A DNA stretch of 6,051 nucleotides from Escherichia phage ID62, in sequence record NC_007824.1, one strand, 5' to 3'. The position numbers were made by a program, and so were the translations under genes. The notes under the pieces are model-generated. The model saw only the letters and a list, made by a program, of their open reading frames with translations. It did not search any database and had not been told where the DNA came from. Positions 26 through 759 of the stretch are shown here, piece after piece. The stretch's first letter is position 1; the number at the start of each line of letters is the position of its first letter.

Positions 26-65
26 GAGACTCTTGCTTCAACGAAATGAAGTTGGAGTCTTTTTT
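26..65 (+). terminator. Imperfect 14-bp stem-loop followed by a T6 run, immediately downstream of the H stop; candidate post-H terminator and/or translational control element
   Basis: Pairs 26-32 with 55-61 (GAGACTC/GAGTCTT, one G-U) and 35-40 with 47-52 (GCTTCA/TGAAGT, one G-U), with T33-G54 as a further wobble, T34/T53 mismatch and 6-nt loop 41-46; TTTTTT at 60-65. phiX174 is known to have a weak terminator after H. Stem is AT-rich, so the call is tentative. Confidence 0.35.
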
Positions 66-434
66 ATGAAACCTGCTCACCGCCTTACTCACCCTGTTCT
101 TGGTTCATGGTTGTTTAAGTGCCCCGTCTATGTTCGTTATGAGTCTGTTCACAATGGTCGCCTTATCAAGGTTCGCGCTGTTCGTGATTTGTCTCCTCGC
201 CAGCAACTGATTGCTAACCCTAAAAATTGTTTTGACGTTGTCATTGTTGAGATTGACTTCACTTATTGCTCTGTTACCTATTTTGATTATGAGGCTGAGG
301 AATATGCTGAGTGTGGCCCAGAGACTATGGATAGCATCATTGCTTATATTAACGCTCCTCACTCCCTTCGCTCTGAGGAGGATTTATCCGTTGATGTTGA
401 TGATATGGAATGGCTCTATGAAATTGCGGAGTAA
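66..434 (+). CDS. Hypothetical protein, 122 aa, basic N-terminal half and strongly acidic C-terminal tail (H-A intergenic ORF 1)
   Basis: ATG at 66 preceded by GGAG (54-57) at 8-nt spacing; open to TAA at 432-434; codon third positions strongly T-biased (gtt, cgt, gct, cct, ctt), as in the canonical genes here. The ORF track starts it at ATG 24, which has no SD. No similarity to any phiX174 protein that I recognise. Confidence 0.5.
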   Translation: MKPAHRLTHPVLGSWLFKCPVYVRYESVHNGRLIKVRAVRDLSPRQQLIANPKNCFDVVIVEIDFTYCSVTYFDYEAEEYAECGPETMDSIIAYINAPHSLRSEEDLSVDVDDMEWLYEIAE

Positions 435-437
435 ATC

Positions 438-527
438 ATGGAAACTGTTATCGGAAAATTTATTGCTCTGGCTGTTGTTGCTCTTATGCTGTATGGAATT
501 TCCCGTTTGATTCGGAGGTTCCCGTGA
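438..527 (+). CDS. Small hydrophobic peptide, 29 aa (METVIGKFIALAVVALMLYGISRLIRRFP), predicted single transmembrane helix with basic C-terminus (H-A intergenic ORF 2)
   Basis: ATG at 438 with GGAG (428-431) 6 nt upstream, starting 3 nt after the ORF 1 stop; TGA at 525-527. Hydrophobic core FIALAVVALMLYGI followed by RLIRRFP. Below the length cut-off of the supplied ORF track. Confidence 0.4.
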   Translation: METVIGKFIALAVVALMLYGISRLIRRFP

Positions 528-700
528 AATATTTTAGTTTGGTTGATGAACATTATGCTTATTGCCTTGATACAAGGATTTTGCATATCACTCGCAGTCG
601 TGTTTCTGACCCTCGGTATGAGCGTCGCTTTCTTACTGATGAGGAGCATCTTGCACTTTTGGATTGGTTGAAAAATCGCCCAGCTTACATTAATTCTTGA
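524..700 (+). CDS. Hypothetical protein, 58 aa, GTG start (H-A intergenic ORF 3)
   Basis: GTG at 524-526 overlaps the ORF 2 stop (ccGTGA, 4-nt overlap typical of translational coupling); GGAGG at 514-518 with 5-nt spacing; TGA at 698-700; T-ending codons throughout. Translation MKYFSLVDEHYAYCLDTRILHITRSRVSDPRYERRFLTDEEHLALLDWLKNRPAYINS. Start codon choice is uncertain. Confidence 0.45.
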   Translation: MKYFSLVDEHYAYCLDTRILHITRSRVSDPRYERRFLTDEEHLALLDWLKNRPAYINS

Positions 701-726
701 CAGACCTTTAAAATACCCTCTATATT
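697..726 (+). promoter_or_regulatory. Candidate sigma70 promoter for gene A (pA-like)
   Basis: Consensus -35 TTGACA at 697-702, 18-nt spacer, -10 TATATT at 721-726; about 34 nt upstream of the gene A ATG; phiX174 has a promoter at the equivalent position. Confidence 0.5.
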
Positions 727-759
727 GCTCTCATAGTTTCACTATGAGGGCTTTTTCGC

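Follow-up and report, generated by a model that had tools for sequence, protein, structure and literature searches.

A conserved 29-codon open reading frame between genes H and A of Escherichia phage ID62 probably encodes a small inner-membrane protein

The 6,051-nt sequence of Escherichia phage ID62 (NC_007824.1), all of which was analyzed and is called the window here, represents an entire alpha3-like microvirus genome (Bullavirinae, Alphatrevirus). Its sequence identity is about 92% to MG945254, WA45 and WA13 and 85% to alpha3. Position 1 adjoins gene H's stop codon, as in the GenBank records, and gene A starts at position 760. The 759 nt that precede gene A, the "H-A intergenic region," are blank in most of the records we compared, and they are filled by three tandem plus-strand open reading frames (ORFs): ORF1 at 66–434, ORF2 at 438–527 and ORF3 at 524–700. 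The genome contains the canonical microvirus genes plus these three ORFs, and no gene for a muralytic enzyme. Our subject is ORF2, which an initial annotation made from the sequence of the window had described as an unannotated single-pass membrane peptide. The coordinates and the length of 29 amino acids (aa) given there are exact; absent from it was the gene context, in which ORF2 is the middle member of a conserved three-ORF module and overlaps ORF3. The parts of the locus that bear on ORF2 are as follows, where pN/pS is the ratio of non-synonymous to synonymous polymorphism and SD stands for Shine-Dalgarno sequence.

66 to 434, plus strand: ORF1, encoding a conserved protein of 122 aa; it ends 3 nt ahead of the ORF2 ATG; pN/pS 0.29
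428 to 431, plus strand: ORF2 SD, GGAG, made by the final ORF1 sense codons GCG GAG
438 to 527, plus strand: ORF2, a 29-aa peptide, METVIGKFIALAVVALMLYGISRLIRRFP; pN/pS 0.37
459 to 503, plus strand: predicted transmembrane segment, ORF2 codons 8–22, with the uncharged hydrophobic core FIALAVVALMLYGIS
495 to 522, plus strand: predicted (inferred) SD-masking hairpin in which 495–503 pairs with 514–522
504 to 524, plus strand: basic, net-charged C-terminal tail RLIRRFP, ORF2 codons 23–29
514 to 518, plus strand: ORF3 SD, GGAGG, within ORF2 codons 26–27 (CGG AGG)
524 to 700, plus strand: ORF3, a 58-aa conserved protein whose GTG start overlaps the ORF2 stop; pN/pS 0.19

ORF2 is preceded by the sequence GCGGAGTAAATCATG; the ORF1 stop codon TAA is at 432–434, the ORF2 start codon ATG at 438–440 and its stop codon TGA at 525–527. 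The SD that the initial annotation assigned to it is indeed present, and its calculated pairing with the anti-SD (−6.1 kcal/mol) and its 6-nt spacer are typical of the canonical genes, whose pairing energies range from −2.9 to −8.7 kcal/mol (n = 10). In relatives the ORF2 SD reads GGAG, GGGG or GGAA, and 0 to 3 nt separate the ORF1 stop from the ORF2 ATG. The relative that diverges most, called L034 here, has no clear ORF2 SD, and its ORF1 stop abuts the ATG.

Sequences of the H-A region were taken from 13 distinct GenBank genomes, from Logan, ENA and JGI contigs found through their ORF1 and ORF3 homologues, and from pattern scans of IMG/VR and JGI. Intactness was counted over 29 distinct complete relatives, and the codon-position, invariance and frame tables cover 26 genomes. 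ORF2 is intact at 28–30 aa in 29/29 relatives and its ATG is invariant, so the frame, whose loss in alpha3-like phages would have spoken against the initial annotation, is kept in every one together with its start. Residues M1–V4, G6, K7, I9–L11, V14, A15, M17–G20 and I25 do not vary; residues 1–20 as a whole are nearly invariant and show conservative replacements only. ORF2 is also confined to this lineage. A tblastn search with it matched only 25 alpha3-like records among 50,697 phage records and found no ORF2 in the phiX174-like and G4-like phages among them, and the same search of 72,556 plasmids gave no match.

The differences that do occur in ORF2 are distributed as in a translated sequence. 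Over codons 1–25, variable columns number 10, 2 and 9 of 25 at codon positions 1, 2 and 3, respectively (position 2 versus positions 1 plus 3, Fisher test p = 0.0065). The first-position changes exchange I and V or F and L or are synonymous within Leu, and T-to-C transitions at second positions, which would bring Thr, Ala, Ser and Pro into the helix, are essentially absent. At least 14 site changes are synonymous and 11 are non-synonymous, where 27–34% would be expected to be synonymous (p = 0.002–0.025). All seven replacements within codons 4–21 remain hydrophobic where about 50% would be expected to do so (p about 0.004–0.015); those seen in the core are F8L, A12V, V13I, L16F and I21V/A. The other five frames across ORF2 either contain stops in 1 to 26 of the 26 genomes or have pN/pS values of about 0.8 to 8. 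The C-terminal tail turns over in sequence and keeps its charge: class I tails end ..RLIRRFP with a GTGA junction to ORF3, class II tails end ..RLI[SDN]R[TI]L[KR] with an ATGA junction, and although the two classes are set apart by several substitutions and an indel of 3 nt, all retain a net charge of +2 to +3. In phage ID32 a 2-nt indel at the junction changes how ORF2 and ORF3 are framed relative to each other, and neither is disrupted. Finally, L034 has an ORF1 that is only 36% identical to that of the window, and its DNA similarity restarts exactly at the ORF2 ATG; in codons 1–21 of its ORF2 there are four synonymous changes and one conservative replacement (V13I). Given the combined codon-position, synonymous, replacement, frame, tail, ID32 and L034 results, the best reading is that ORF2 is translated and that its product, a hydrophobic peptide whose basic tail lies in the cytoplasm, is under selection.

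Three ORFs in other frames overlap this part of the window, at 416–649 on the minus strand (77 aa), 211–510 on the plus strand (99 aa) and 546–671 on the plus strand (41 aa). The 99- and 41-aa ORFs are very hydrophobic, and the plus strand of this genome is 32% T; such a T-rich genome easily yields spurious ORFs that resemble membrane proteins. Across the ORF2 region the frames of the 77- and 99-aa ORFs show no coding signal; the 77-aa ORF was set aside on its pN/pS of 0.79 and a stop in one genome, and the 99-aa ORF on its pN/pS of about 7.

The predicted peptide consists of a short neutral N-terminus (METVIGK), one candidate hydrophobic helix (F8–S22) and a basic C-terminal tail. Its 19-residue Kyte-Doolittle mean is 2.15, above the classical cut-off of 1.6, and the core is uniformly hydrophobic, not amphipathic. 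In all 13 peptide variants scored, the charge is 0 over the N-terminal seven residues, 0 over the core and +2 to +3 over the tail (+3 for RLIRRFP of the window). By the positive-inside rule such a peptide would cross the inner membrane once, with its N-terminus in the periplasm and its C-terminus in the cytoplasm. Since frame, start and residues are conserved with coding-type substitutions, a single-pass membrane peptide, as the initial annotation had it, is in our view still the best reading. From its sequence and its evolution we consider it fairly probable that ORF2 specifies a genuine single-pass inner-membrane protein (N out, C in), chained between ORF1 and ORF3 in a module specific to Alphatrevirus; that ORF2 is a real coding gene, whatever the location of its product, seems to us more probable still.

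A number of observations weigh against this interpretation. The hydrophobic core that had been put at about 17 residues is present, but its uncharged stretch, F8–S22, comprises only 15; a position-independent sum on the Hessa scale is −1.3 kcal/mol for that 15-mer and +0.9 kcal/mol for the 19-mer, which is borderline; the segment would be membrane-competent, though short. The basic tail also exists as described, but its R27 codon is always the AGG of the ORF3 SD (GGAGG or TAGGA), and part of the tail would thus be a by-product of that signal. Hydrophobicity does not set ORF2 apart in this T-rich genome: among 19 plus-strand ATG ORFs that are off-frame and have 25 aa or more, seven match or exceed it in this respect (none of these seven has an SD). 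Only 2.8% of single-nucleotide changes in ORF2 would create a stop, so an open frame in close relatives is expected and is weak evidence. At 0.37, the pN/pS of ORF2 is no more than moderately low, and it derives from about 25 substitutions. Its pS is 0.13, versus 0.44 for ORF1 and 0.32 for ORF3, and therefore some constraint may act on the nucleotide sequence itself. Because a terminator-like hairpin (26–65) directly follows gene H, mRNA over the module may be low. Neither structural models nor homologue searches of the neighboring ORF1 and ORF3 gave a functional clue, and the searchable literature holds no ribosome profiling, mass spectrometry or genetics on ORF2. Because hydrophobicity and openness are each weak alone, the case rests on gene context and sequence evolution.

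The low pS bears on the idea that conservation of these 90 nt acts at the level of DNA or RNA, be it as a structure in the single-stranded genome, a determinant of mRNA stability or the initiation region of ORF3, and that the ORF is fortuitous. The ORF2 region has the highest mean pairwise identity of the H-A region (0.92–0.97) and low synonymous diversity, both the openness and the hydrophobicity of the frame are chance-expected, and the RefSeq records name canonical genes only, as does a 2026 paper on an alpha3-like phage. The level of conservation is not exceptional, however; gene A shows comparable nucleotide conservation, and the synonymous conservation of ORF2, taken up as a possible sign of a hidden element, was dropped when a sliding window showed gene A and parts of gene H to be its equal. 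A non-coding element would also leave the 10/2/9 three-base periodicity and the synonymous excess hard to explain without translation, and it does not account for a conserved ATG and SD or for a stop that follows the ORF3 start through indels. An Rfam scan of the ORF2 region gave no significant match, and positions 400–540 fold no better than shuffled sequence (z = +1.08); on these two negatives the idea of an RNA element in ORF2 was set aside, and we regard a purely non-coding explanation of the conservation as unlikely.

The junction with ORF3 is conserved in its own right. The ORF2 stop overlaps the ORF3 start, as GTGA or ATGA, in every relative but ID32, where the two are separated by a 2-nt gap. 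The ORF3 SD of the window, GGAGG, pairs with the anti-SD more strongly than any other SD of the genome (−10.7 kcal/mol), and in relatives this SD is GGAGG or TAGGA and lies within ORF2 codons 26–27. In class I this strongest SD serves a weak start codon, GTG; ORF3 of class II starts with ATG. Given the stop/start overlap and the embedded SD, translation of ORF2 probably feeds ribosomes to ORF3, so that the two products would be made together. A hairpin that pairs 495–503 with 514–522 is predicted in most class I relatives (−9 to −14 kcal/mol), with 93% of its cells paired, and we infer that it may keep the ORF3 SD masked until it is melted by a ribosome moving through ORF2.

These features raise the possibility that only the act of translating ORF2 matters, passing ribosomes on from ORF1 to the ORF3 GTG and melting the hairpin, and that the peptide is a by-product with no function that is soon degraded. 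The near-universal stop-start overlap, the position of the ORF3 SD inside ORF2 ahead of a weak GTG in class I, the predicted sequestering hairpin and the 0–3 nt between the ORF1 stop and the ORF2 ATG would all fit such a leader. A pure coupling ORF should tolerate residue change, however, and residues 1–20 are almost invariant with their second codon positions frozen; moreover, every replacement exchanges one hydrophobic residue for another, and the tail retains its charge while its sequence turns over. The hairpin itself shows no two-sided covariation among relatives, and the region around it is no more structured than shuffles. We therefore hold it rather improbable that ORF2 serves coupling only, and prefer a peptide that is itself under selection, in an ORF whose translation may also be coupled to that of ORF3.

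The initial annotation had likened the peptide to type I toxins. Like TisB, Hok, Ldr, Ibs, ZorO and DinQ, the ORF2 product is hydrophobic and shorter than 60 aa, and its single helix and basic tail recall TisB or ZorO in particular. A toxin or holin-like protein of this kind would depolarize or permeabilize the inner membrane and modulate lysis alongside protein E, and expression within the late operon would be compatible with such a role. The likeness did not hold up in the tests applied. ORF2 has no sequence relation to toxin, holin or defense families, and the type I toxins tried (Hok, Ldr, TisB, Ibs, Sho, Zor, DinQ and Fst) were rejected for lack of any Pfam, NCBIfam, PADLOC or PDB match. 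No antisense RNA or antisense promoter was seen: a consensus scan, which weak promoters can escape, found no minus-strand promoter-like site within 1–800. The type I toxins are borne on chromosomes or plasmids, whereas ORF2 is absent from both the E. coli chromosomes and the plasmids searched, and its core lacks amphipathicity. In addition, phiX174-like and G4-like phages lyse their hosts without ORF2. Microvirus lysis proceeds by E-mediated inhibition of MraY, and these phages lack an endolysin that a holin could let out. Holins, pinholins and antiholins were rejected as well, since ORF2 has 29 aa against a minimum of about 60 aa and the genome has no endolysin gene, and an E-type amurin was rejected since there is no match to Pfam Microvir_lysis and no Pro in ORF2 residues 1–28. 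That ORF2 encodes a membrane-damaging toxin is, in our judgment, very unlikely.

What a selected, membrane-inserted ORF2 product might do can be approached through known small proteins. Lysis protein E is encoded at 2682–2912 (76 aa in this genome), overprinted inside gene D; like the predicted ORF2 peptide it is small and membrane-anchored, with a single hydrophobic helix and a basic region after it, but ORF2 is a stand-alone gene, its 29-aa product has no Pro in the core and no similarity between the two is seen. The transmembrane domain of E contains a Pro and is required for MraY inhibition. The filamentous Ff phages M13, f1 and fd encode, in genes VII and IX, hydrophobic proteins of 33 and 32 aa, which cap a virion that is assembled in the membrane. 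By analogy these resemble the ORF2 product in being peptides of about 30 aa from a single-stranded DNA coliphage, with a single hydrophobic helix and no signal peptide, and their genes likewise lie in a tight polycistronic array in which starts adjoin or overlap the upstream stop (ATGA-type); PHROG, Pfam and PDB searches showed no sequence similarity. A structural role for ORF2 is unlikely, because F, G, H and J form the microvirus capsid in the cytoplasm. The bacterial inner-membrane proteins KdpF, PmrR, MgtS and AcrZ, of about 30 aa, share with ORF2 a single helix and a charge bias that fixes topology, although NCBIfam and Pfam show no homology and ORF2 is phage-encoded. Such small bacterial proteins typically bind and modulate a larger membrane protein, and by this analogy binding to a larger membrane protein would be the most plausible mode of action for ORF2 as well. 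ORF2 would most likely belong with the phage micro-membrane proteins.

The ORF2 product may have an accessory, non-structural function at the envelope of the host, perhaps jointly with ORF3. A more specific proposal, which we offer tentatively and think doubtful, is that the ORF2 product is a second membrane-acting effector of the Bullavirinae that anchors or regulates ORF3 at the inner membrane and perhaps does the same for the fast-evolving ORF1; its purpose might then be exclusion of superinfecting phages, tuning of lysis or countering of host defense. If true, this would explain why the clade tolerates about 700 extra nt despite a strong constraint on genome size.

ORF2 is not strictly new, although the description "unannotated" fits most of the distinct GenBank genomes compared, including RefSeq alpha3 and WA45, which have no feature at ORF2. 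In the record of phage Lilleven the same peptide, without a difference, is listed as hypothetical protein QBZ71503.1, and the 1980s alpha3 record M25640 marks the GGAG before ORF2 and the GGAGGT before ORF3 as ribosome-binding sites. The exact peptide of the window is present on 30 contigs, and gene callers predicted ORF2 on most of the metagenome contigs retrieved. Scans of ORF1–3 against Pfam, PHROG, NCBIfam and PADLOC gave nothing significant (ORF2 matched PHROG entries only at E values of at least 0.026), a PDB sequence search with ORF2 gave no match, and we found no functional study of ORF1–3 in the searchable literature. When 5,426 E. coli genomes were searched by blastn with the H-A region, nothing matched, which argues that the region has no host or prophage source.

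The phiX174-type phages are textbook examples of fully annotated genomes, yet for the alpha3 clade the RefSeq records and the 2026 paper name canonical genes only. Three conserved, chained genes in the H-A region, if shown, would correct an "intergenic" label more than 30 years old. The module would then offer, in a 6-kb genome that can be synthesized, a tiny and tractable system for a phage micro-protein at the host membrane, and one suited to study of how translational coupling sets micro-protein dosage. Should the module affect host range, superinfection exclusion or evasion of defense, that would account for the chief genomic difference that separates Alphatrevirus from the phiX174 and G4 groups.

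Two further features of the plus strand, one on either side of the three ORFs, set the transcriptional context of the module.

26 to 65, plus strand: hairpin and T-run after gene H, conserved and terminator-like; its 3′ arm includes the ORF1 SD
697 to 751, plus strand: promoter-like site (697–726, consensus match), then a terminator hairpin (727–751, 11-bp stem) and a T-run

The promoter-like site, TTGACA-18-TATATT, matches the sigma-70 consensus at 11 of 12 positions, and its −35 box overlaps the ORF3 stop. The stem of hairpin 727–751 shows compensatory changes, CATAG/CTATG versus CAAAG/CTTTG in ID32, L034 and a further relative (L032). In phage NC35 a 29-nt deletion removes the −10 box and half of the terminator stem. 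A combined promoter-terminator element, pA-T_H, has been described for phiX174 (bioRxiv 10.1101/2020.03.05.979765), and the arrangement at 697–751, promoter followed by terminator, is its counterpart; ORF1–3 are therefore inserted between H and pA-T_H, within the late transcription unit. The three would form a lineage-specific accessory module, and from its location between gene H and pA/T_H it is expected to be transcribed on read-through late mRNAs. The upstream hairpin, 26–65, has a predicted stability of −17 to −21 kcal/mol in most relatives and carries the ORF1 SD (GGAG, 53–56) on its 3′ arm, and it could act in termination, as an operator of ORF1 translation, or in both ways. Relatives whose ORF1, at 154 aa, bears a 32-aa N-terminal extension (L015 and L017) lack the hairpin. 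An ATG at position 24 upstream of ORF1 is not conserved.

ORF1, ORF2 and ORF3 were found in all alpha3-like genomes examined, the exceptions being ORF1 frameshifts in the 1992 alpha3 sequence and in St-1. The alpha3 reference NC_001330 has a 1-nt deletion that breaks ORF1 at about 190–200 of the locus; ORF1 is intact in the re-sequenced alpha3 DQ085810.2, which makes an old sequencing error the probable origin of the frameshift in RefSeq. The 1-nt deletion of St-1 is a different one, at about 228, seen in one record. The N-terminal half of ORF1 is conserved (pN/pS 0.10) and its C-terminal half is hypervariable (pN/pS 0.48, nucleotide identity about 0.6), most of all at 300–375. In L034 (locus 820–1209), identity jumps from an ORF1 that is 36% identical to DNA that is about 90% identical past the ORF2 ATG, which puts the breakpoint of a recombination or replacement precisely where ORF1 and ORF2 meet. 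AlphaFold2 gave a confident, beta-rich model of ORF1, with a predicted local distance difference test (pLDDT) score of 88.8, and a fair one of ORF3, with a pLDDT of 79; neither model gave a fold match. A profile search with ORF1 over 1.84 billion representatives returned microvirus proteins only, and homologues of both ORFs are restricted to microvirus contigs, those with ORF3 homologues being up to about 6 kb. As ORF1 and ORF3 have neither fold matches nor non-microvirus homologues, the function of the module cannot be deduced from these neighbors.

Two minor observations concern sequences downstream of ORF2. At ORF3 codon 15 (566–568) the window has Leu (CTT) where nearly all relatives have Pro, within YCPD or YCPE, and NC3 has Ser. 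The most conserved stretch of the whole H-to-A comparison, with a mean pairwise identity of 0.99, lies inside gene A at about 983–1035 of the window; it contains CAACTTGATAATAGTAACACTATAGACCACCG, which resembles the viral-strand replication origin that protein A recognizes.

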